64,000 bases of DNA from an uncultured Dehalococcoidia bacterium (GTDB taxonomy: Bacteria; Chloroflexota; Dehalococcoidia; Lucifugimonadales; CAJWUJ01). The stretch spans positions 2,743-66,742 of the forward strand of contig CAJWUJ010000002.1 in the NCBI GenBank assembly GCA_913047625.1, given 5' to 3'. Below the pieces are notes generated by a model. The model worked only from the letters and a program-made list of their open reading frames with translations. It was not told the origin of the DNA and did no database searches. Made by a program: the position numbers and the translations under genes. This document shows positions 1 to 21,149 of the stretch, piece by piece (position 1 is the stretch's first letter; each line of letters starts with the position of its first letter).

Positions 1-359
1 CGTTCAAATGCGTCTACGGCATTATTTCTTCTGGGATCAATGCCGAAAAAAGGGATTAATCGATTCGGATATGCTCGGCCCATTTCTGCAGATAACCTGT
101 TTTCTCCTTCTATAGTGAATGTGGGTTCTCCTAGTCGTAATCCGTAGTCAGCTACAAAGATAACCGTTGCATCCACTCCAGATTCATCAAGTTCGTTTAT
201 GTGATCCAAGGCAGCTTCCTTCCAATCTGGAACTAGAGGCAATGGATCGCTTTGTGCGTGGACGGGATCTAGCTTGCCGGGGTTTTTGGAAGCAATTTCC
301 GACGCTTGTGGGTAGCGCTGGTAAAATGACCATGTATGCCTATGTAGATCTATTATCAT
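1..359 (-). CDS. Amidohydrolase-2 type metal-dependent hydrolase, N-terminal part only (gene runs off the window start)
   Basis: Reverse-strand reading from ATG at 359 (AGGAG about 7 nt upstream) gives MIIDLHRHTWSFYQRYP...GVDATVIFVADYG...NRLIPFFGIDPRRNNAVDAFE. This shows the D-x-H-x-H metal motif and the layout typical of amidohydrolase-2 proteins. The frame stays open to position 1. Track ORF 167..418(+) is its antisense shadow. Confidence 0.7.
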   Translation of the reverse strand, partial: MIIDLHRHTWSFYQRYPQASEIASKNPGKLDPVHAQSDPLPLVPDWKEAALDHINELDESGVDATVIFVADYGLRLGEPTFTIEGENRLSAEMGRAYPNRLIPFFGIDPRRNNAVDAFE

Positions 360-376
360 CCCTACTCCTGCTTTGG

Positions 377-1441
377 TTAATCTGTGGAAAGTGTATCAAT
401 CCCGCTATGACGAACTAGATTCTCTTGTAGTTCGTTTGCGTGTTGGAAAATTAATGGAGTTCCACCCGTGTGGATGAAAACCACGGGGACTTCTTTAGAT
501 ATCAGACCCTTTTTAATATGATCTATTAATCCTGCCATGGCTTTGCCTGTGTAAACTGGATCCAAAATTAAGTTGTCGGTCTTAGCTGCTATATGAATTG
601 CTTCAATACTTGCTTCTGTAGGAACTGGATAAATTCCCTCGTATTTTCGGTCTATTTGCACTTCCTCTGGAGTAATACTTACAGGGAGATGCAATAATTC
701 ACTGACTCCTTTGGTCCAGCTCGGTATTGCCTCTGTGAAGTCTACATAGTCGCTCACTGGTATTCCAGTAACATGCCATGGTTTACCCATTAACTTTCCA
801 CCGAGTTGTAATCCTGCATGAGAATGGCCTGCGACGACATAAAACTGTGCCTCATTGATGCCCTTTTCATTCAATTGATCAGCTATCTCGATTGAAGCGT
901 GCAAATATCCCAGTGTTCCTGCGTGGTTAGCCCACGGAGTGTATTGGAATGTGAACGGATTATGGCCAGCTTGTTTAAGTCGGTCTTCTAAAGATTTAAT
1001 CTCCGTCAATATTTCTTCCGAATCTGAAGTTTCTAAAAACACCATTTCAGCGTTCATTAGATGATAAATTAGGGGATTACCTTGTAGAGGGTTAAGATGT
1101 TCGCCGGGCTTGATCAGCAAAATAAACCGAACCCCACTTTTCGTACAAGCAGCTGCCATTACTCTAGCGGCATTAGATGAAGGGGGATACTGTGCGATCA
1201 CTACGTCATGTCCTTGTTCTAAGACATGGCCCATGGCAAATTCAAAATGACGGGCCTTATTGCCGCCAAAGGCTGGTCCGGTTAGATCGTCTCTTTTGAC
1301 GAAAATTGGAGGACCATCAAGGAATCGGGAAAGATTTTGGACCTCTTCTAAAGGCGTTGTACCGCTAACAAATTTAAACCTTGGTGTTTGCTCTATAGCT
1401 TTATTCAGTTGTTCTGGCGTGTAATAAACAGGCTTTTGCAT
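377..1441 (-). CDS. PLP-dependent enzyme, ACC deaminase / D-cysteine desulfhydrase / L-cysteate sulfo-lyase family (paralog 1)
   Basis: Track ORF 377..1450. It carries KRDDLTGPAFGGNKARHFEF (GGNK PLP-lysine motif) and C-terminal FIHTGG. ATG at 1441 (AGGGG about 6 nt upstream) is preferred over GTG at 1450. Confidence 0.8.
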   Translation of the reverse strand: MQKPVYYTPEQLNKAIEQTPRFKFVSGTTPLEEVQNLSRFLDGPPIFVKRDDLTGPAFGGNKARHFEFAMGHVLEQGHDVVIAQYPPSSNAARVMAAACTKSGVRFILLIKPGEHLNPLQGNPLIYHLMNAEMVFLETSDSEEILTEIKSLEDRLKQAGHNPFTFQYTPWANHAGTLGYLHASIEIADQLNEKGINEAQFYVVAGHSHAGLQLGGKLMGKPWHVTGIPVSDYVDFTEAIPSWTKGVSELLHLPVSITPEEVQIDRKYEGIYPVPTEASIEAIHIAAKTDNLILDPVYTGKAMAGLIDHIKKGLISKEVPVVFIHTGGTPLIFQHANELQENLVRHSGIDTLSTD

Positions 1442-1487
1442 AGTATGCACCCCTAGGTGAAAATTAGACGGTTGCAGAAATTATACG

Positions 1488-2510
1488 TTATTTAGTATGC
1501 GTCGTGTAAACTACCTCATCTGCATGCTCAAAAAGCTTTGGGATTCCCCCCGTGTGGATAAATACGACTGGAACATCGGGAGAAATTTTCCCTGAAGTTA
1601 TATAATCAATCATTCCGTGCATTGATTTTCCTGAATATGCTGGATCAAGGACAATTCCTTCAGTGCTAGCAGTTAGGTTAATAGCTTCGACAGAGCCTTT
1701 TGTAGGTACGGAATATGTCTCTACATAATCAAAAGTTGTTTCTATTTCACTGGCCGGTAAGTCAGTCGGTAGCCCTAAAGTGCTAGCGACTTGTTCACTC
1801 CATCCAGTGAGGGGAAAGTCTTGTTCGAAATCTTGGCCAACGCCTATGCCGGTGACTCGCCACGGCAGCCCCAGTATTTTGGCTCCTAACTGGAGACCTA
1901 CTTGAGAATGCCCGTTCACGAGGAAGATATGGACTTTGGTTATGCCAATATCCGTGAGTTGTTTCTGAAGTTCAAGGGTAGCGTTTAAATAAGAAATTAC
2001 GCCTGACATATGGAACATTGGTTCTGCTTGAGCAACGTAGGGTTTGTGGCCAGCAGCAGCCAGTTCAATGCCAATTTGCTCTGCTGCGGATATGCCATCC
2101 TCTTTTGATTCTCCAGCCTCTCGCAATTCTGCACCAAATAAAACTGATAGAAGCATATTTCCTTGGTAGGGCCTTTGCAGGGGCGGAGTTACTAAGATAC
2201 ATTTCATCCCTGTTTTAGCACAAGCGCAGGCGGTTTGTCTTCCTGCATTTTTACTATCGGCGTATACATATGTGTCGCATCCTTTGCGAAGTGCATCAGC
2301 AAGGCGGTACTCCAAATGTCTCATCTTGTTGCCACCCAGTGCTTGTCCGGTCAAATCATCACGTTTTATCAAGATTTTGGGTCCGCCCAATGCCTTACTT
2401 AAATTATTAGCTTCTTCCAAAGGCGTCGGTAAATATGCCAAAGGTGTTCGGGGAACTTTCTTTAACACACTGGCAAGGGCATCTTGGGTCATATAGGTAT
2501 TTGATGTCAT
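1488..2510 (-). CDS. PLP-dependent enzyme, ACC deaminase / D-cysteine desulfhydrase / L-cysteate sulfo-lyase family (paralog 2)
   Basis: It carries KRDDLTGQALGGNKMRHLEY and FIHTGG. AGGAGA lies 5 nt upstream of the ATG. It sits 37 nt upstream of paralog 1 on the same strand. Confidence 0.8.
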   Translation of the reverse strand: MTSNTYMTQDALASVLKKVPRTPLAYLPTPLEEANNLSKALGGPKILIKRDDLTGQALGGNKMRHLEYRLADALRKGCDTYVYADSKNAGRQTACACAKTGMKCILVTPPLQRPYQGNMLLSVLFGAELREAGESKEDGISAAEQIGIELAAAGHKPYVAQAEPMFHMSGVISYLNATLELQKQLTDIGITKVHIFLVNGHSQVGLQLGAKILGLPWRVTGIGVGQDFEQDFPLTGWSEQVASTLGLPTDLPASEIETTFDYVETYSVPTKGSVEAINLTASTEGIVLDPAYSGKSMHGMIDYITSGKISPDVPVVFIHTGGIPKLFEHADEVVYTTHTK

Positions 2511-2536
2511 GATCGTCTCCTATTTGTGAGCACACC

Positions 2537-3280
2537 TTACTGCATGGTCAAACCGCCGTCTATCACTAAGCATGATCCTGTAACAAAATTACTGTCTTTT
2601 GATGCTAAGTACACGGCACCTGACGCAATTTCATGCGGTTGGCCTAACCTTCCCATTGGTTGGCGGTTAGTCATCTGTTTCTTAGTTTGAACTGGATCAG
2701 GGTAAGTTGCAACCATTCTATCTACCCATGGTGTGTCAACAGTGCCCGGACATATGGCATTACAGCGGACTCCTTCCCCCACGTAATCTAACGCAATAGA
2801 CCGCATAAGAGAGATCACCCCTCCTTTTGTAGCACAATAAGCCGTTCGTTCTTTGATTCCAACCATTCCAGCAACAGAAGCCATCATGATTATGGAGCCC
2901 TTGGACTGAATTAGATGAGGCATAAGGACTTGGGATACGAGAAAGGGTCCAGTAAGATTTACAGCTAACATTTGATGCCAATTGGGCTCAGTGGTTTCAA
3001 GCAGTGTTCCTGGTAAACCAAACCCGGCATTGTTCACAAGGGTATCTAGTCCTCCGAGCCAGTTGACGGCCTCTTTTGCAGCCATACCAATATCTGCAGA
3101 CTTCGTTACATCAGCCTTAACAAAAAGGCAGTTAGGATTCCTCTCCAGTTCCATATTTGTAATGGGATCCTTATCGATTATTGCAACTTTAGCCCCTTCC
3201 AACAGAAACGAGTCCACAATCGCTTTTCCGATTCCAGAACTGCCCCCTGTCACGATAGTTTTATAGTTGTTTAGTCGCAT
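2537..3280 (-). CDS. Short-chain dehydrogenase/reductase (classical SDR)
   Basis: TGGSSGIGKAI cofactor motif, NNAG, and catalytic YCATK (Y-x3-K). Strong RBS AAGGAGGG. Confidence 0.85.
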   Translation of the reverse strand: MRLNNYKTIVTGGSSGIGKAIVDSFLLEGAKVAIIDKDPITNMELERNPNCLFVKADVTKSADIGMAAKEAVNWLGGLDTLVNNAGFGLPGTLLETTEPNWHQMLAVNLTGPFLVSQVLMPHLIQSKGSIIMMASVAGMVGIKERTAYCATKGGVISLMRSIALDYVGEGVRCNAICPGTVDTPWVDRMVATYPDPVQTKKQMTNRQPMGRLGQPHEIASGAVYLASKDSNFVTGSCLVIDGGLTMQ

Positions 3281-3355
3281 GACAACTGCCCTCCTTGTTA
3301 TATACGATTATATATGCATATCCTGCCGTAGCTCACTCTTTTGTGGTCTCGAAAT

Positions 3356-3382
3356 GTGACAAGAAAAAGATTACTGTACAAT
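3356..3382 (+). promoter_or_regulatory. Candidate sigma70-like promoter for the DapA-like gene
   Basis: GTGACA (3356-3361), a 15-nt spacer, then TACAAT (3377-3382) preceded by TG. The spacer is short and promoter rules in this lineage are unknown. Confidence 0.2.
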
Positions 3383-3436
3383 TTTAATTCGAGAGGATAT
3401 AAATATTCTAGTAAAAAGGAAAATAAGGAGAAATTC

Positions 3437-4330
3437 ATGCAGGATAAATTTGCTGGCGTTCATTGGATGCTCAGTACCCCTTTTAATGAATCGGAGCAAG
3501 TTGACTATGAATCATTAGCTCGGTTAATTGTCAAAGCTCGTGAATTTGGGTGTGTGGGAGTTGTTGTGCTTGGTGTTACTGGCGAGGTGGCAAAATTAAC
3601 AGATTCGGAACGATACAAAATTGTTGAATTTGTCGTCCAGAAAGCAGCAGGGTTATCAGTTGTAGTAGGAACTACTGGATCTGGAACAGCTGTCGCTGTG
3701 GCGAGAAGTCAGGAGGCCGATCAATTAGGAGCACATGCTTTAATGATCGCTCCACCTCCTATAGCTAAACCAAATCTTGCTGCGGTAATACATTATTACT
3801 CATCAATAGCTGCAGCAACTTCTTTGCCGTTAGTTATACAGGATTATCCGGCAGTATCAGGTGTTTATATGACTGTTGAATTAATGAAACAATTGGCCGA
3901 TCAGCTGCCTTCTTTTAAGTATTTGAAATTAGAGGATCCCCCGACTCCCGCTAAGCTATCAATGATCAAGAAGAGCTTGGGTGACAGGATCGGTGTGTTC
4001 GGAGGCCTGGGAGGCTTGTGTCTCTTTGATGAATTAAACAGGGGATCTTTAGGGGCAATGACAGGTTTTGCTTTCATAGAGGTTTTTGTGGAAATTGTAC
4101 AATATATGCAGCAGCAGCAGCACGGGGAGGCTCGAGAATTATTCTATAAATACCTTCCTTTAGTGCAAATGGAAATGCAAGAAGGTATTGGGCTTAGTAT
4201 AAGGAAAGAGGCACTGAGATTACGAGGGCTAATTGATACCGCACTTGTACGACATCCTGGAGTTAATATCGATGATGTGACACGTAACGAGCTGAAAACA
4301 CTGGTTTCGTGGTTAGGTCTAGAGTTTTAA
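3437..4330 (+). CDS. Dihydrodipicolinate synthase (DapA)/N-acetylneuraminate lyase family class I aldolase-type enzyme
   Basis: Track ORF 3341..4330. The family-like region starts at MQDKFAGVHWMLSTPF with AAGGAG 6-7 nt upstream of ATG 3437. It shows GVTGEVAKLTDSER and a (beta/alpha)8 aldolase-like pattern. Confidence 0.7.
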   Translation: MQDKFAGVHWMLSTPFNESEQVDYESLARLIVKAREFGCVGVVVLGVTGEVAKLTDSERYKIVEFVVQKAAGLSVVVGTTGSGTAVAVARSQEADQLGAHALMIAPPPIAKPNLAAVIHYYSSIAAATSLPLVIQDYPAVSGVYMTVELMKQLADQLPSFKYLKLEDPPTPAKLSMIKKSLGDRIGVFGGLGGLCLFDELNRGSLGAMTGFAFIEVFVEIVQYMQQQQHGEARELFYKYLPLVQMEMQEGIGLSIRKEALRLRGLIDTALVRHPGVNIDDVTRNELKTLVSWLGLEF

Positions 4331-4346
4331 TTTATAGAGGAGTGCC

Positions 4347-4505
4347 ATGGGTGTTAATCAGCTTGGGTTTTTGATGTTCGTTTTTGGACTGATGCTAATG
4401 ATTCGGGCAATTAGAAATAGAGGGAAGCCAGCAATATTTCTTGGACCAGGAATGTCACTTGCATTCATAATCCTGGGATTTTTTCTTTTTGTAGCACAAA
4501 CTTAG
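4347..4505 (+). CDS. Small hydrophobic protein (52 aa, two predicted TM helices), unlisted in the ORF track
   Basis: ATG at 4347 with AGAGGAG 5-6 nt upstream. The product is MGVNQLGFLMFVFGLMLMIRAIRNRGKPAIFLGPGMSLAFIILGFFLFVAQT*, two hydrophobic stretches flanking a basic loop. It starts 16 nt after the DapA-like stop. Confidence 0.45.
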   Translation: MGVNQLGFLMFVFGLMLMIRAIRNRGKPAIFLGPGMSLAFIILGFFLFVAQT

Positions 4506-4651
4506 CAAGCTTAATTCGCACATGATCTATCATAGGAAACCACTGGTGGATCGAGGGAAGTTATCGACTTTACGGTCAATCCAGTTGTACTGTAGAGTGA
4601 GTGAAGTGACTAAACACCAAACTATGGTGTTGCTAAATGGAGGACTATGTG

Positions 4652-5704
4652 ATGAAAGTGGCTATTGTAGGAACAGGTGCAGTGGGAGGCTTCGTAGGTG
4701 GGGCGGCTGCTGACGCTGGTGAGGACATAACGTTGATTGATCCTTGGGATCAAAACGTAGAAGCTATACGGTCCAACGGAATATTGGTTGATGATCCTGT
4801 TGCTGGGCCGCGACATTTTCACCCACGTAAGGTTATATCTATTAACGAGATTGGTACGTTACAGGCATCGTTTGACTTGCTTTTAGTGGCTGTCAAATCT
4901 TATAACACTGAGATGGCTGTCACGAAAATGATCCCGTATTTAACAGAAGACAGTACTGTTGTAAGTGTTCAAAACAGTATAAATGAAGAAGTAATAATGC
5001 CAATTGTAGGTCGATCACGGACTGTGGGTGTGGTTGTACGGGGTAACTGTCAGATGATGCAACCAGCAAAAATTCTCATTACTCGATCCATTACGCAATC
5101 GGATAATACCGGGGTAGGAGGAGTCAATTACCTTGTTGGTGAACTAGATGGGAAGATTACCAAAAGAGCAGAAAGAATAGCGCAGGTACTGAGTCACGCT
5201 AATAAAGCAACTGTCACATCGAATTTATGGGGAGAGCGCTGGTCTAAATTGATAATTAACTGTGTCGCTAATTCTGTTTGCGGTGCAACAGGATTGAGAT
5301 CTTCTGAGGTCTGGACGAATCCAGCTCTTAGAAAAGTCAGTTCACAGCTTGCCTATGAAACTGTTGATGTGGGTAATCGGCTCGGTTATCCGATACCATC
5401 AGTGATGGGAGATTTGTCGGTAGATGATATTTTGGGTGTGCCAAAAGGAGAATCGGTTAAGTTAGATCAGGCGTTGCTCCAAAGGTCTCAAAAAGTCCAT
5501 GAACTGGCAATGCCTTCTCTCCTGCAAGATATTTTAAAAGAGAGACGGACTGAGATCGACTACTTGAATGGATTAGTAGTTAATAAAGGGAAAGAAGCAG
5601 GAGTTGCAACTGAAACAAGCCAAGCGATTGTGAGTCTTATTCATGCCATTGAACAGGGTCAGGCCAAGCCGAATCCTGATGCAGTAGCACAACTTGCAAT
5701 TTAA
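4652..5704 (+). CDS. 2-dehydropantoate 2-reductase (ketopantoate reductase, PanE/ApbA) family oxidoreductase
   Basis: MKVAIVGTGAVGG Rossmann start, VSVQNSIN and ERWSKLIINCVANS family motifs. ATG 4652 is preferred (GGAGGA upstream) over 4637. Confidence 0.75.
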   Translation: MKVAIVGTGAVGGFVGGAAADAGEDITLIDPWDQNVEAIRSNGILVDDPVAGPRHFHPRKVISINEIGTLQASFDLLLVAVKSYNTEMAVTKMIPYLTEDSTVVSVQNSINEEVIMPIVGRSRTVGVVVRGNCQMMQPAKILITRSITQSDNTGVGGVNYLVGELDGKITKRAERIAQVLSHANKATVTSNLWGERWSKLIINCVANSVCGATGLRSSEVWTNPALRKVSSQLAYETVDVGNRLGYPIPSVMGDLSVDDILGVPKGESVKLDQALLQRSQKVHELAMPSLLQDILKERRTEIDYLNGLVVNKGKEAGVATETSQAIVSLIHAIEQGQAKPNPDAVAQLAI

Positions 5705-5737
5705 TAAAACTGAAAGTGTCTATCGTTGAGGTTGTAA

Positions 5738-6841
5738 TCATCTGATCATCGCTCTGGCACTGACTGGCCATATTACCTCAAGCCTATTGTTTCTCATCCC
5801 AAAAAGATGGGTATGAAGATTTACAGTGGTGTCGTTGTGACCTGGAATAAGTTCAACTTTGTCGCCAGGACGCAGCTGTTGAGACGTTTCAGATTCCAGG
5901 GTTATTGTTAGGTGCTCGTCAGATGCAGATGCAACTGTTAGCCCACTAGCTGACTTTATAATAGGGGGCCATTGGTCCGTTGAAAGAGCCTTCATTCCAC
6001 AATCGATTACTGCTCGGTCTTGTGTAGGCCTGCTTATAACGCTAGCTATTATAGTTCCGGCATTCACAAAGTCGGGTAGTACCCTGCCATATTGAGCATC
6101 CATGAAAACGTATGAACCAGGTTGGATTTCAGTAATATGGGAATAGGAACCCGTCATGTTGTAGGTTCCTGTTCCTCCAGCAGTTACAATTTCACAGGGA
6201 ATTTCTGCGGATCGTAAATGGTTAATGGCAGCAAGGGTTTTTTCCATGGAGTCTGAATCAAGGGATTTTCTTTTGTCATCATCTTCTACACTTTGAATAG
6301 CACCGTTGTAGGCGTGAATACCTAGGAACTGGAGTCCAGGAGCTGCTTCGACGGCCTGTGCCAGATCTATAACAGATTTGTCGGGTTCAACACCACATCT
6401 GTTTTGTCCTACATTTACATCGAGCAAAACTCCAATAGATACTTGGGCTGCATTGGCTGCTTCTGATAAATCAACAACGTTTGCGACATCATCCACAGTC
6501 ACTGACACCTTCGTGCTTTTTGCGAGTGCCATCAGCCGACGGATTTTAAAAGATCCAATGATCTCATACGTTATTAAGATATTATCTATTCCGTGAGAAG
6601 CCATAATTTCAGCTTCTCCTAGTTTTTGACAGCAGATACCGATAGCTCCAGCTGCAATTTGTTTTTTGGCTATATCAGGACTTTTATGGTGTTTCGTATG
6701 GGGACGAAGATTAATTGATTTCGACCTACAATAAGAAGCCATTTTCTCAATATTATTTTCCATTGCATCGAGGTCAATGATAAATGAAGGTGTATCGAGT
6801 TCTTCTTTTGGTGTGCCTAATGATGGTGTAAACTCTTGCAT
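5738..6841 (-). CDS. Fold-type III PLP enzyme, D-serine dehydratase (DSD1) / D-threonine aldolase family
   Basis: NLRPHTKHHKSPDIAKKQ (R-P-H-x-K-x-H-K PLP-lysine motif of the alanine-racemase-N/DSD1 family). C-terminal metal motif PGHND (5831-5845). Confidence 0.75.
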   Translation of the reverse strand: MQEFTPSLGTPKEELDTPSFIIDLDAMENNIEKMASYCRSKSINLRPHTKHHKSPDIAKKQIAAGAIGICCQKLGEAEIMASHGIDNILITYEIIGSFKIRRLMALAKSTKVSVTVDDVANVVDLSEAANAAQVSIGVLLDVNVGQNRCGVEPDKSVIDLAQAVEAAPGLQFLGIHAYNGAIQSVEDDDKRKSLDSDSMEKTLAAINHLRSAEIPCEIVTAGGTGTYNMTGSYSHITEIQPGSYVFMDAQYGRVLPDFVNAGTIIASVISRPTQDRAVIDCGMKALSTDQWPPIIKSASGLTVASASDEHLTITLESETSQQLRPGDKVELIPGHNDTTVNLHTHLFGMRNNRLEVIWPVSARAMIR

Positions 6842-6964
6842 TAATCTCCTTTATTATGTTTCGTGTATAGGATGTCTTAAGGTAGAATGCTCTACAGGTG
6901 GATATTTAGTTAGTTTAATTCTGTAATTATATCAAAAACAAAACAATAATATTTGGGGGTTACT

Positions 6965-7924
6965 ATGTCCTTGATTAACTTTGTAGATGTACTACGAGCG
7001 AGAGAAACTATTGCGCCTTATGTGAACAAAACTCCTACTTATCCCTATATTGGATTGAGCAAATTGGTGGGAGCTGAAATCTACCTAAAGCATGAAAACC
7101 ACCATGCATTAGGCTCATTTAAAGTCAGAGGTGGCATAAATTACATGTCCAACTTGGCTGCTGAAAGTAAGAAAAGAGGCGTTATTACAGCGTCTACTGG
7201 GAATCACGGCCAGTCTATTGCGTACTCAGCTTCCGTTTTTGGTGTACCAGCAGTCATTGTTTCGCCCGAAGACGCCAACACAAGTAAAGTTGAGTCCATG
7301 CGAAATCTGGGGGCAGAATTGATTTTGAAAGGCAAAAACTTTGACGAAGCACGGGAAACGGTGGAAACTGAGGCATCGCAGAGAGGTTTAACGTATATTC
7401 ACGCTGCCAATGAACCATTGATAATCGCTGGTGTTGCTACCTATGGATTAGAGATGTTGGAAGATATACCGGATATTGAGGTGGTGATTGCACCAATAGG
7501 AGGTGGCAGTAATGCTGCTGCCCTCTGTACTGTTGCTAAAGTGATCAATCCTAAAATTCAAATCATTGGTGTCCAATCTGCTCAGGCACCAGCGGCGTAT
7601 CAATCTTGGACAAGCAAGGGAATTAAGAGTGCACCAACAAGTACTGTAGCTGAGGGACTAGCAACTTCAATCGGCTTTGAGTTAACACAGAACATTCTTT
7701 GGGAGCTCTTGGATGATTTCGTTCTTGTTGACGATAAAGAAATTGAAGGTAGTATCGTTACTTTAGCTACAAAAGCGCATACTCTTGCAGAAGAAGCAGG
7801 AGCTTCTACTCTAGCGTGTGCTTTAAAGATCAAGGATCGTTTATCGGGCAAGAAGGTAGCTCTAGTGATTTCGGGAGGAAATATTTCCTTGAAGCGACTG
7901 AAAGCCATAATGAGTACAGCTTAG
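6965..7924 (+). CDS. Fold-type II PLP enzyme, threonine/serine dehydratase (or hydroxy-amino-acid ammonia-lyase/racemase-like) family
   Basis: HALGSFKVRGG (PLP Lys), TASTGNHGQS and PIGGGS loops. ATG 6965 is preferred over the track's TTG at 6953. Confidence 0.8.
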   Translation: MSLINFVDVLRARETIAPYVNKTPTYPYIGLSKLVGAEIYLKHENHHALGSFKVRGGINYMSNLAAESKKRGVITASTGNHGQSIAYSASVFGVPAVIVSPEDANTSKVESMRNLGAELILKGKNFDEARETVETEASQRGLTYIHAANEPLIIAGVATYGLEMLEDIPDIEVVIAPIGGGSNAAALCTVAKVINPKIQIIGVQSAQAPAAYQSWTSKGIKSAPTSTVAEGLATSIGFELTQNILWELLDDFVLVDDKEIEGSIVTLATKAHTLAEEAGASTLACALKIKDRLSGKKVALVISGGNISLKRLKAIMSTA

Positions 7925-7958: not shown

Positions 7959-8576
7959 CTATCTAGTATTGGCGACTTGCCACATGTACCATGATCCAAT
8001 AGACCTGTAGGGTTTCCATTTAGCAGTCACTTTTTCCACGGCACCTGTATTAGGGGGTTTGTTCTGAAAGTATATTATACGGATTCCTTTCATCAGGCCT
8101 GCATCTCCAGGAGCAAAAACATCTAGTCGGTTCAGAGCAAACATCTGAAACATTTGCGCCGTCCAGGTTCCCACACCTTTTAGCTGTGTCAATGTTGTAG
8201 TGATTTCATGATTTTCCTTATCGGCTAGATCACTGAGATACGTAGGATTGTTAGTCAATACCTTGGCAATTGATTGAATACTAGAAGACTTTGCATAAGA
8301 CAGTCCACATGAGCGCAGCACATCCGTTTCCATTTCACTCAGTGCTGAAGGAACGAATTCGGTACTTTCTAACAGTCGATAAAGTCGATCTTTTAATGTC
8401 CGAGCCACTTTTGTAGATAGCTGTTGAGAAATGATGGAATTGATGAGCTGATCAAATAGATTGGGTTCAAATGCTCGCTGAGATAAGAATGTAGGTTGTC
8501 CAAATGATGCTATTAAGCACGCAAGCCTCTTGTCGTTCTTAACTAAATGTTGCTTTATAATTTGCCAATCTGTCAT
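7959..8576 (-). CDS. DNA-3-methyladenine glycosylase II-like HhH-GPD base-excision repair glycosylase
   Basis: LKGVGTWTAQMF helix-hairpin-helix followed by PGDAGLMKG (catalytic Asp region). Size is about 205 aa. Confidence 0.7.
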   Translation of the reverse strand: MTDWQIIKQHLVKNDKRLACLIASFGQPTFLSQRAFEPNLFDQLINSIISQQLSTKVARTLKDRLYRLLESTEFVPSALSEMETDVLRSCGLSYAKSSSIQSIAKVLTNNPTYLSDLADKENHEITTTLTQLKGVGTWTAQMFQMFALNRLDVFAPGDAGLMKGIRIIYFQNKPPNTGAVEKVTAKWKPYRSIGSWYMWQVANTR

Positions 8577-18805: not shown

Positions 18806-19312
18806 ATGAATTGGGCACAGGCGATAATTGCATCTTTAAAAGCGCAGGCTATTTCCATGATAGCCTTTGTTCCTGACGTCAGTATTGATAAAGTGACAAG
18901 ATTGATGGAAAAAGATCCCTTTTTTACTGTAGTTGCTGCAACCAGAGAGGAAGAAGCAATTGGCATAGCTTCTGGAGCTTACGCGGTTGGGAGAAATGCA
19001 GCAGTCTTTATGCAATCGAGTGGGTTTGGAAACTCCGTAAATGCTATCGCGAGCTTGTGTATGCCTTGCCGGATTCCAATTCCCATGTTCATCAACTTAC
19101 GAGGACAATTAGGAGAGTTTAACATTGCTCAGGTTGCTATGGGTCAAGCTACCCGTCCTATATTGGACGTTTTAGGATTGCCTCACTATGTATTAAATGC
19201 CTCTGATGATATCGAGAAAGTGACAACTGGAGCATTGCAGCTGTGTTATGGAAGCCGTCAACCACTGGCGATCTGTCTGACTCCTTTGTTAACTGGAGGA
19301 AAACTTGTTTAG
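18806..19312 (+). CDS. comD: TPP-dependent sulfopyruvate/phosphonopyruvate decarboxylase, alpha (ComD-like) subunit
   Basis: 168 aa. REEEAIGIASGAYAVGRNAAVFMQSSGFGNSVNAIASL is the TPP pyrimidine-binding half. The size and split architecture match ComD. Confidence 0.7.
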   Translation: MNWAQAIIASLKAQAISMIAFVPDVSIDKVTRLMEKDPFFTVVAATREEEAIGIASGAYAVGRNAAVFMQSSGFGNSVNAIASLCMPCRIPIPMFINLRGQLGEFNIAQVAMGQATRPILDVLGLPHYVLNASDDIEKVTTGALQLCYGSRQPLAICLTPLLTGGKLV

Positions 19313-19859
19313 GTATGAAGCAACCCAGATGATCCTTGGGTGTCTTCAGGATCAGCCTCTCGTGACTAATTTAGGACCTACTACTGACGAGCTTTGGGCA
19401 GCAGGGCATCGCGATCGGAATTTTTACACTTTTGGTTCTATGGGTCTCTGTTCTTCTATAGCGCTGGGAATGGCATTGTCTTTATCAGAGAAAGTGATTT
19501 CACTTGATGGTGACGGATCCCTGCTTATGAACCTTGGAACGATTGCTTCCATTGGTAGAGAACAACCTTCTAATCTTATTGTAGTGGTGTGGGACAACGA
19601 AGAATGGGCTCAAACGGGTCGTCAAAAAAGCCATACTGCATTTGGCACAAATTTGGAAGCCGTTGCTCGTTCTTGTAATATAACTCATACCAAGACAGTA
19701 ACTGACTTAACACAGTTTAAATCGGTATTTAAAGAGTCACTAACAACCGATGGTCCTTGGTTTATAGTTGCAAAGATTGAGGAAGGGGAACTATACCCCT
19801 TAATGCCTCAGGAACCTGATGCTACTCTTCTTAGATTCAGAGCGACATACCTCTCATAG
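19305..19859 (+). CDS. comE: TPP-dependent sulfopyruvate/phosphonopyruvate decarboxylase, beta (ComE-like) subunit
   Basis: 184 aa. GSMGLCSSIALGMAL...LDGDGSLLMNLG...VVWDNEEW is the TPP diphosphate-binding GDGS..N motif. TTG start with GGAGGA 4 nt upstream, overlapping the comD stop by 8 nt. Confidence 0.7.
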   Translation: MFRYEATQMILGCLQDQPLVTNLGPTTDELWAAGHRDRNFYTFGSMGLCSSIALGMALSLSEKVISLDGDGSLLMNLGTIASIGREQPSNLIVVVWDNEEWAQTGRQKSHTAFGTNLEAVARSCNITHTKTVTDLTQFKSVFKESLTTDGPWFIVAKIEEGELYPLMPQEPDATLLRFRATYLS

Positions 19860-19991: not shown

Positions 19992-21149
19992 ATGACGAAG
20001 AAATTTAGGATTAGGTCATTCGGTGTCGTTGCTTGTTCCCTATTGCTAGGTTTAGCTGCAATTGGGTGTGGCATAATTGGTGGCTCTACAACGGTAAAGA
20101 TAGGGTTGCTGAGTCCTCAGACGGGCCCCATAGCAGTGTATGCGCCGGGCTTTGAGGATGCTGCTAGTGTAGCAATAGCGCAACTTAATGAGGCCAATGA
20201 TGATTATGAATTTGAACTAATTGTGGCCAATTCCGGTTGTGATGCAACTCAGGCAGCTACATCTGCCCAGTCGCTTGTTGATTCAGGTGTTGCAGGTATC
20301 GTAGGAGCGGCCTGTTCTGGTGCAACAATGTCTGCCATATCAGTGGCACAAGCAGCAGGAATTCCTATGGTCTCTTATGCGAGTACATCTCCAGCAATAA
20401 CTACATTGGCAGATGATGGTTATCTGTTCCGTGTAGTACCCAGTGATGCACAACAATCAGTAGCACTATCTGATGTAGTGAAAGCAAACGGTAGTACCAA
20501 TACTGGAGTGTTGTATATGACAAATGACTACGGTGCAGGACTAGCTGAAAACTTCAAGGGAGCTCATGGCGGTCTATGCACAGAAGTGGGTTATGATCCC
20601 GCAGAAGGTTCATACGATGCTTCTACGTTAGCTCAAGCCATTGTTGATGGCGGCTGTGACTCTGTTGTACTTGTGTCTTATGCTACTGACGGAGCTGCAA
20701 TAATGGAAGCATTGTTGTCACAAGGATTTAGCGGTGATCTTTATGGTGCTGATGGCGTCGCAGATGCAGCGTTCGTAAATTCGTTCACTGACACAAAGGC
20801 TGTTGATGGTCTTATTGCTACTAAACCTCGACCAGGCAAGGATTCTGCAGCAAAATCGACCTTTGAGACAGCTTACTCTGCAGCGGGTGGCGATACTGAG
20901 GGAATTTACACTCACGAAACCTATGACGCAGTTAACATAATTGCGGCAGCTGCAATGGCTGATGATTCAGATGACCTCAGAGATGATTTAAACAGTGTTG
21001 GTAAGGGATATGACGGAGCTAGTGGTTCCCATACTTTTGATTCTAATGGTGACGTATCCGGTACTGGTTATGATGTCTGTCACTTCCACGGAACAGACTT
21101 TGAGTGTGACAAGATTTGGACGTCTGACGGTGGCGTAACTAGCGGATAA
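19992..21149 (+). CDS. ABC transporter substrate-binding protein, Leu/Ile/Val-binding (LivK/type I PBP) family, probable lipoprotein
   Basis: Signal-like N-terminus ending LLLGLAAIGCG (Cys lipobox-like), then KIGLLSPQTGPIAVYAPG, typical of LivK-type binding proteins. Strong RBS AAGGAGG. Confidence 0.8.
   Translation: MTKKFRIRSFGVVACSLLLGLAAIGCGIIGGSTTVKIGLLSPQTGPIAVYAPGFEDAASVAIAQLNEANDDYEFELIVANSGCDATQAATSAQSLVDSGVAGIVGAACSGATMSAISVAQAAGIPMVSYASTSPAITTLADDGYLFRVVPSDAQQSVALSDVVKANGSTNTGVLYMTNDYGAGLAENFKGAHGGLCTEVGYDPAEGSYDASTLAQAIVDGGCDSVVLVSYATDGAAIMEALLSQGFSGDLYGADGVADAAFVNSFTDTKAVDGLIATKPRPGKDSAAKSTFETAYSAAGGDTEGIYTHETYDAVNIIAAAAMADDSDDLRDDLNSVGKGYDGASGSHTFDSNGDVSGTGYDVCHFHGTDFECDKIWTSDGGVTSG

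Follow-up and report, generated by a model that had tools for sequence, protein, structure and literature searches.

At one end of a 64,000-nucleotide stretch of DNA from an uncultured Dehalococcoidia bacterium (assembly GCA_913047625.1, contig CAJWUJ010000002.1, here contig C2; the whole stretch, bases 2743-66742 of that contig, is called the window throughout) lies an 8.5-kb cluster of nine genes, several of which encode pyridoxal 5'-phosphate (PLP) or Schiff-base enzymes. The metagenome-assembled genome (MAG) that carries it comprises 1.55 Mb in 42 contigs and is 91% complete. The stretch was present in 17 DNA runs from 11 studies, every one of them a marine or seawater metagenome, and those homologues that bear organism names come from SAR202 cluster bacterium and Chloroflexi MAGs. 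GC content is 0.42-0.44 throughout, so that composition gives no island signal. Gene assignments, which combine the list of open reading frames (ORFs) with Pfam and NCBIfam profile searches, are as follows, in window coordinates:

Amidohydrolase, 1-359 (ORF 3-359), minus strand: 5' portion (first 119 codons) of a 304-amino-acid Amidohydro_2 (PF04909) protein, terminal gene of a minus-strand operon
A, 377-1450, minus strand: fold-II PLP enzyme of the DcyD/CuyA/1-aminocyclopropane-1-carboxylate (ACC) deaminase family, 357 amino acids, PALP domain
B, 1488-2510, minus strand: second DcyD/CuyA-family PLP enzyme, 340 amino acids, PALP domain
C, 2537-3280, minus strand: classical short-chain dehydrogenase/reductase (SDR) oxidoreductase, 247 amino acids, first gene of the operon C-B-A-amidohydrolase
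D, 3437-4330, plus strand: divergent DapA-family (DHDPS) Schiff-base enzyme, 297 amino acids
Small ORF, 4347-4505, plus strand: two-helix membrane mini-protein of 52 amino acids, 17 nt 3' of D
E, 4637-5704, plus strand: PanE/ApbA-family NAD(P)H 2-oxoacid reductase, 351-355 amino acids
F, 5738-6841, minus strand: fold-III PLP enzyme of the D-threonine aldolase/BhcC clade, 367 amino acids, Ala_racemase_N and D-ser_dehydrat domains
G, 6953-7924, plus strand: short (319-323 amino acids) threonine/serine-dehydratase-like fold-II PLP enzyme, PALP domain, without a regulatory domain

A first-pass annotation of this DNA had read these genes as a catabolic locus for D- or beta-hydroxy-amino acids. Every gene it named is present where it placed it, and the Pfam and NCBIfam families agree with its assignments; it was also right that no regulator or transporter stands among these genes, though the two-helix membrane ORF is absent from its list. 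No protein of the cluster attains an NCBIfam equivalog cut-off. The start of D was set at 3437 (giving 297 amino acids) from its homologues. The complete amidohydrolase gene occupies bases 2187-3101 of contig C2, its end falling 555 bases ahead of the window; a Pfam search with the 119 codons inside the window found no match, while the full 304-residue product belongs to PF04909.

The strand layout predicts at least four transcription units. C, B, A and the amidohydrolase gene form an operon with gaps of 26, 37 and 17 nt, the last gene being convergent with a HyuA-type gene; D, the small ORF and E make up a plus-strand group; F stands singly on the minus strand, convergent with E and divergent from G; and G is convergent with an HhH-GPD glycosylase gene. 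A search for a shared operator in the intergenic regions between C and D, the small ORF and E, and F and G recovered only 8-mers in common, and the best common word, TTTAATTCG (one mismatch allowed), occurs 23 times in the window against 20.4 expected, with no enrichment. Promoter and terminator consensus scans gave results at or under shuffle expectation. Two metatranscriptome runs each contained six short, low-depth contigs that cover parts of the amidohydrolase gene, A, B, C, F and G and none of D or E; these are too sparse to judge co-expression, or the transcription or silence of D and E, and could be carried-over DNA.

The concentration of these enzymes at the locus is real and exceeds uniform chance in this MAG. 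Genome-wide there are 11 PALP, 5 DSD1-like, 4 DHDPS-family and 4 ApbA-family genes, and the 8.5-kb locus holds 3, 1, 1 and 1 of them, respectively. With random positions for 20 such genes in a set of 1500, groups of five or more within eight genes arose in 0 of 200,000 trials, and merging A and B into one gene gave a frequency of 5.6e-4, though both figures are generous, as the enzyme class was chosen after seeing the data. Paralogous loci in the same genome do not repeat the association: a third DcyD-like gene adjoins hisS, and a 59% identical Amidohydro_2 paralog stands with Amidohydro_3 and EamA genes.

Such clustering would be expected if the nine genes constituted a functional regulon, confined to this lineage, for the stepwise catabolism of D-configured or beta-hydroxylated amino acids. 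Under this scheme G would carry out racemisation or dehydration, F a retro-aldol cleavage and A and B eliminations, after which E, D and C would perform reduction or aldol chemistry on the resulting 2-oxo acids. Besides the non-random clustering, the scheme draws support from the PLP enzymes, all of which come from families acting at C-alpha or C-beta and three from D-specific ones (PMC11193023, PMC4401734), from D and E being spare paralogs free for catabolic roles and, weakly given possible carry-over of DNA, from the RNA-library contigs over six of the genes. It is opposed by the division into at least four transcription units with no shared operator found, by the lack of a transporter and a regulator in the cluster, and by the predicted products of A, B and G (pyruvate and 2-oxobutyrate), which require no further dedicated enzymes.

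The first-pass annotation had itself named conservation of the neighbourhood in relatives as the test of its proposal, and that synteny is absent. The complete order, from HyuA through the cluster to CoA-transferase, ECH and HyuB, recurs only in seawater contigs of 96-100% identity, the encoded proteins being 91-100% identical. In a relative at 88% identity C, D, the small ORF and E remain together on a 2.8-kb contig; in one at 74%, D and the small ORF are kept and are followed by a further partial ORF; no relatives were found between 74% and ~57% identity. Our wider comparison set consisted of 120 other genomes of the order, all from other families, and in none of these did the homologues of B, D, F and G come within 10 kb of each other; they occur instead on separate contigs or more than 100 kb apart. 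One genome (G015) has the four on four contigs, and in another (G037) D and B are 132 kb apart. Genes surrounding the homologues of B, D, F, G and the amidohydrolase bear no relation to this cluster.

These comparisons bear on the regulon in both directions: all near relatives seen share the arrangement, but the homologues of B, D, F and G are unlinked everywhere else in the order, and G (see below) is a single-copy ortholog in 74 of the 120 genomes. On balance we consider a lineage-restricted regulon unlikely; it retains some probability given the statistical strength of the clustering and the lack of close relatives. A bolder form, in which the whole set of nine forms a single regulon for recovering nitrogen and carbon from D-configured or beta-substituted amino acids of refractory dissolved organic matter and includes enzymes with new specificities (B with Lys at Ser78, and the F orthogroup without His193), appears unlikely.

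A and B are related to enzymes that eliminate beta substituents from D-amino acids. The best NCBIfam model for both is CuyA, at 228 bits for A and 233 for B where the cut-off is 450, followed by XcbE, DcyD and ACC deaminase; on TIGR01275 they score 190 and 181 bits against a cut-off of 289. Their neighbours among PDB entries, with scores of 162-176 bits, are D-cysteine desulfhydrases and ACC deaminases. With D-cysteine desulfhydrase (4d8t, 7ysk) and ACC deaminase (1rqx) they share the fold and the PLP-binding GGNK motif, and they have DcyD-type Tyr-Ser/Thr and His-Thr-Gly-Gly motifs; they differ in scoring under all subfamily and equivalog cut-offs and in lacking Glu295 and Leu322. These two residues (Pseudomonas numbering) are the hallmark of ACC deaminases, and since their positions are occupied by Ser and Thr in B and by Thr and Thr in A, we rejected an ACC deaminase identity for both proteins. 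In alignment with StDcyD, whose numbering we follow, A retains Lys51, Ser78, Asn79, Tyr287 and Thr315, and B retains four of the five, with Lys replacing Ser78. All five residues are common to DcyD and CuyA, and Tyr287 has been tied to a preference for D-substrates (PMC11193023).

A and B are 42% identical to each other. In our tree they fall into two well-supported sister groups, A forming an orthogroup with a 55% identical homologue in another genome (G055). Because each sister group includes members that occur singly in other families, the pair is old and not an obligate couple, and an obligate A-B heteromer was set aside, A-type and B-type genes being found singly in other genomes. Homologues of B occur in 24 of the 120 genomes at no more than 49% identity, mostly in single copy and with no SDR or amidohydrolase gene beside them. 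An M20 peptidase/amidohydrolase gene directly adjoins B homologues in two families (f7, f28) and lies 4.4 kb off in a third (f52; loci L059 4481-5839, L060, L063, L065 and L053), a hint that B-type enzymes may act on amino acids freed from N-acyl or peptide precursors.

The CuyA matches bring in another explanation, that A and B act as sulfo-lyases of the cysteate type within a locus for the degradation of organosulfonates (cysteate or cysteinolate). CuyA, a D-cysteate sulfo-lyase, is the best model for both proteins, and sulfonates are abundant in seawater (PMC12814064). Moreover, 11 kb downstream (18806-19859, plus strand) is a split thiamine diphosphate enzyme resembling sulfopyruvate decarboxylase alpha/beta, whose scores of 144 and 153 bits fall short of the respective cut-offs, 148 and 222; a periplasmic binding protein gene (19992-21149) comes after it. 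Like the lyases of known CuyA/CuyB clusters with HpsN and CuyC (PMC11193023, PMC12814064), A and B are DcyD-derived fold-II PLP lyases with a Tyr287-type base expected to favour D-substrates. However, they score only half the CuyA equivalog cut-off, and B has Lys in place of Ser78, which CuyA and DcyD have in common. The cluster also lacks a CuyB racemase, a histidinol-dehydrogenase-type HpsN, CuyC, CuyZ and a sulfite exporter, and searches of the genome (91% complete), in which Soe- and Apr-type routes were not searched for, turned up neither a TauE-type exporter nor a molybdenum sulfite oxidase. We therefore regard a sulfonate locus as very unlikely.

F falls within the clade of D-threonine aldolases and BhcC. 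Its PDB matches are the D-threonine aldolases 7dib (290 bits) and 4v15 (258 bits) and the D-3-hydroxyaspartate aldolase 6qkb (262 bits), with His/Cys dehydratases at 93 bits, and its top NCBIfam match is the BhcC model NF045642 (345 bits), whose cut-off of 690 is not reached. Like the D-threonine aldolase of Alcaligenes xylosoxidans (AxDTA; 4v15, PMC4401734) and BhcC (6qkb), F has fold III, and the PLP-binding Lys59, Arg157 and the metal ligands His347 and Asp349 all align in F and its orthologs. The exception is His193, proposed by Uhl et al. as the catalytic base and reported by them to be conserved in all annotated D-threonine aldolases (PMC4401734): the position is His in AxDTA, 7dib and BhcC, but Ser in F and Ser, Gly or Ala in its four orthologs. 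By these residues F is a member of the aldolase clade that fails one of its defining features, and its aldol reaction is a prediction only.

No other cluster protein is encoded within ~10 kb of the four F orthologs (56-62% identity; genomes G034, G015, G014 and G004), and these have no neighbours in common. More distant relatives of F, with 30-39% identity, are DSD1-like fold-III PLP genes in tandem pairs, which are widespread in the order: one pair lies in the genome studied here (C5:39030-41267, locus L052 5019-7283), and about 18 other genomes have them too; both copies in the own-genome pair lack the His/Asp metal motif that F retains, and such pairs may represent a two-subunit or non-metal form.

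The position of F next to G invites comparison with the beta-hydroxyaspartate cycle, of which the two could form a reduced module, F as a BhcC-like aldolase and G as a BhcB-like dehydratase, with E replacing the imine reductase. BhcC is the top NCBIfam match for F, BhcB is among the matches of G, the two genes are adjacent and divergent, and the D-3-hydroxyaspartate aldolase 6qkb aligns with F at 262 bits. The scores fall well below the respective cut-offs, however (345 against 690 for F, 207 against 550 for G), and threonine ammonia-lyase models fit G better. The adjacency of F and G is absent from every genome with an F ortholog, F lacks the His common to BhcC and D-threonine aldolases, and the locus lacks the Bhc-cycle partner genes, having neither an aminotransferase nor an ornithine-cyclodeaminase-type reductase. 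We give hardly any credence to such a module.

Among PDB entries G most closely resembles TdcB (194 bits) and serine racemases. Threonine ammonia-lyase models of NCBIfam match it at 304 bits (cut-off 496) and 290 bits (cut-off 379), covering only the catalytic part. As in TdcB (2gn0) and the serine racemase-like short dehydratases, G consists of a catalytic domain only, is of similar length and has the SFKxRG lysine motif and a GNH motif; unlike them it reads Ser-Thr-Gly-Asn-His and lies outside any tdc operon. The equivalent place is Ser-Ser in serine racemases and Ser-Ala in IlvA and TdcB.

The 74 genomes with a G ortholog (45-62% identity) have exactly one each, in neighbourhoods that differ by genome. 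In 13 genomes without an ortholog, the only homologue is 34-41% identical and lies in a frame of at least 390 codons, a length that would be expected of IlvA with its regulatory domain. This distribution suggests that threonine dehydratases of this order normally lack a regulatory domain. The genome studied here, 91% complete, has ilvC, and searches for a long IlvA and a citramalate synthase returned nothing above cut-off. G is the leading candidate for the role of general threonine/serine dehydratase in this cell, and we regard it as about an even call whether it has this housekeeping role; if it does, it stands in the cluster by accident of position.

D and E are not the housekeeping enzymes of their families. 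D scores 127 bits on TIGR00674 against a cut-off of 206, on which a DapA identity was rejected, and contig C12 carries the authentic dapA (PF00701 score 311 bits) some 2.6 kb away from dapB. The closest PDB entries to D are 3dz1, an uncharacterised protein (162 bits), and L-2-keto-3-deoxyarabonate dehydratase, at 105 bits. E passes the cut-off of the PanE subfamily TIGR00745 (170 bits against 141) and ranks third among four paralogs, and a search for panB in the 91%-complete genome gave no match; if the organism does not make pantoate, all four PanE-family genes may be general 2-oxoacid reductases.

Orthologs of D (47-56% identity) occur in 20 of the 120 genomes, on other contigs than the homologues of B, F and G or more than 100 kb from them. 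Scans of genome and metagenome contigs with D returned one near-identical 2.6-kb contig and otherwise distant Firmicutes matches. In two independent SAR202-like metagenome contigs (one being L027 10001-20930), D homologues of ~55% identity have as direct neighbours genes for a cupin and a PIG-L deacetylase as well as the NADH dehydrogenase (nuo) operon. The small ORF behind D encodes two hydrophobic helices joined by a basic loop, has GAGGAG upstream, and is retained in the relatives at 96%, 88% and 74% identity with mostly synonymous or conservative changes (8 nucleotide differences yield one amino acid change, and 18 yield five conservative ones).

The amidohydrolase has a best PDB match of 57 bits (3irs, uncharacterised) and no match in the NCBIfam search. 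Its closest homologues (53-59% identity) are arranged as tandem Amidohydro_2 pairs, with an MFS transporter gene nearby in two of three contigs. Transposase or integrase genes are also found near such pairs in two of the three.

Taken together, our data suggest that the locus, carried by a small SAR202-type genome of marine Dehalococcoidia, is probably a lineage-specific mosaic of independent enzymes rather than one conserved pathway. In the operon of C, B, A and the amidohydrolase gene, A and B would be anciently diverged PLP lyases that catalyse alpha,beta-elimination on D-amino acids with a beta leaving group, with a 2-oxo acid, ammonia and the leaving group as predicted products; the SDR and the metal hydrolase encoded alongside them have no assigned substrates. 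In the second unit (D, the 52-residue membrane ORF and E), D would use a 2-oxo acid as its substrate, as a Schiff-base lyase or dehydratase, and E would be a 2-oxoacid reductase. F, alone in the third, would be a metal-dependent D-beta-hydroxy-amino-acid enzyme with an altered catalytic base, and G, alone in the fourth, would most likely be a general threonine/serine dehydratase. Each enzyme probably takes its own substrate from dissolved organic nitrogen and delivers pyruvate, 2-oxobutyrate or glycine, plus ammonia, to central metabolism, and the juxtaposition of the genes probably arose within the lineage by rearrangement in a paralog-rich catabolic region.

The earlier proposal of a D-/beta-hydroxy-amino-acid locus thus survives in part: the enzyme classes and the bias towards D-configured or beta-substituted substrates fit the families (PMC11193023, together with the metal site of F), but the stepwise pathway does not fit the missing synteny, the status of G as a widespread single-copy gene or the at least four units without a common operator. 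Several observations nonetheless weigh against a mosaic. The D-specific lyases and the D-specific aldolase clade lend the genes a common stereochemical theme, and the density of PLP and Schiff-base enzymes is far over the uniform-placement null, as functional grouping would likewise produce. Many seawater samples show the same arrangement, which for C, D and E persists down to 88% identity. In addition, the organism's own family is represented by one species among the compared genomes, and synteny of an accessory locus may be lost across families. Finally, gene content, family placement, active-site residues, missing synteny and paralog numbers are direct observations, whereas the substrates named here, the independence of the enzymes and the housekeeping role of G are predictions.

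A mosaic of this kind has a counterpart in the paralog-rich regions described for SAR202 by Saw et al. 2020 (PMC6946804), which likewise belong to small marine Chloroflexota genomes with many divergent catabolic paralogs in gene contexts poorly conserved across lineages. Those paralogs were proposed to serve chirally complex dissolved organic matter (PMC6946804). In contrast to our locus, that study stresses enolase-superfamily racemases, monooxygenases and dioxygenases, and a search of its text for aldolase, sulfo-lyase and desulfhydrase found none of these terms. D-amino-acid use by SAR202 is an open question in marine carbon and nitrogen cycling (PMC6946804), and if the nine genes did form one pathway they would offer a concrete handle on how the abundant SAR202 bacteria of the deep ocean use D-amino acids and other chirally unusual nitrogen compounds. 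As it stands, gene neighbourhood appears to be a weak guide to function in these genomes, and the divergent enzymes that merit attention are B, those of the F orthogroup, and G, a short dehydratase with wide conservation.

A further observation concerns variation of the locus in natural populations. In two seawater DNA runs, single contigs match the cluster up to 1444/1447, 5228/5571 and 7966/8018 and then continue into unlike sequence, and the diverging ends have no match in the MAG itself or in the compared loci. The ends at 1444-1447 (the junction of A and B) and 7966-8018 (the G-H junction, just past the end of G) may reflect population variants in which these genes have other neighbours.

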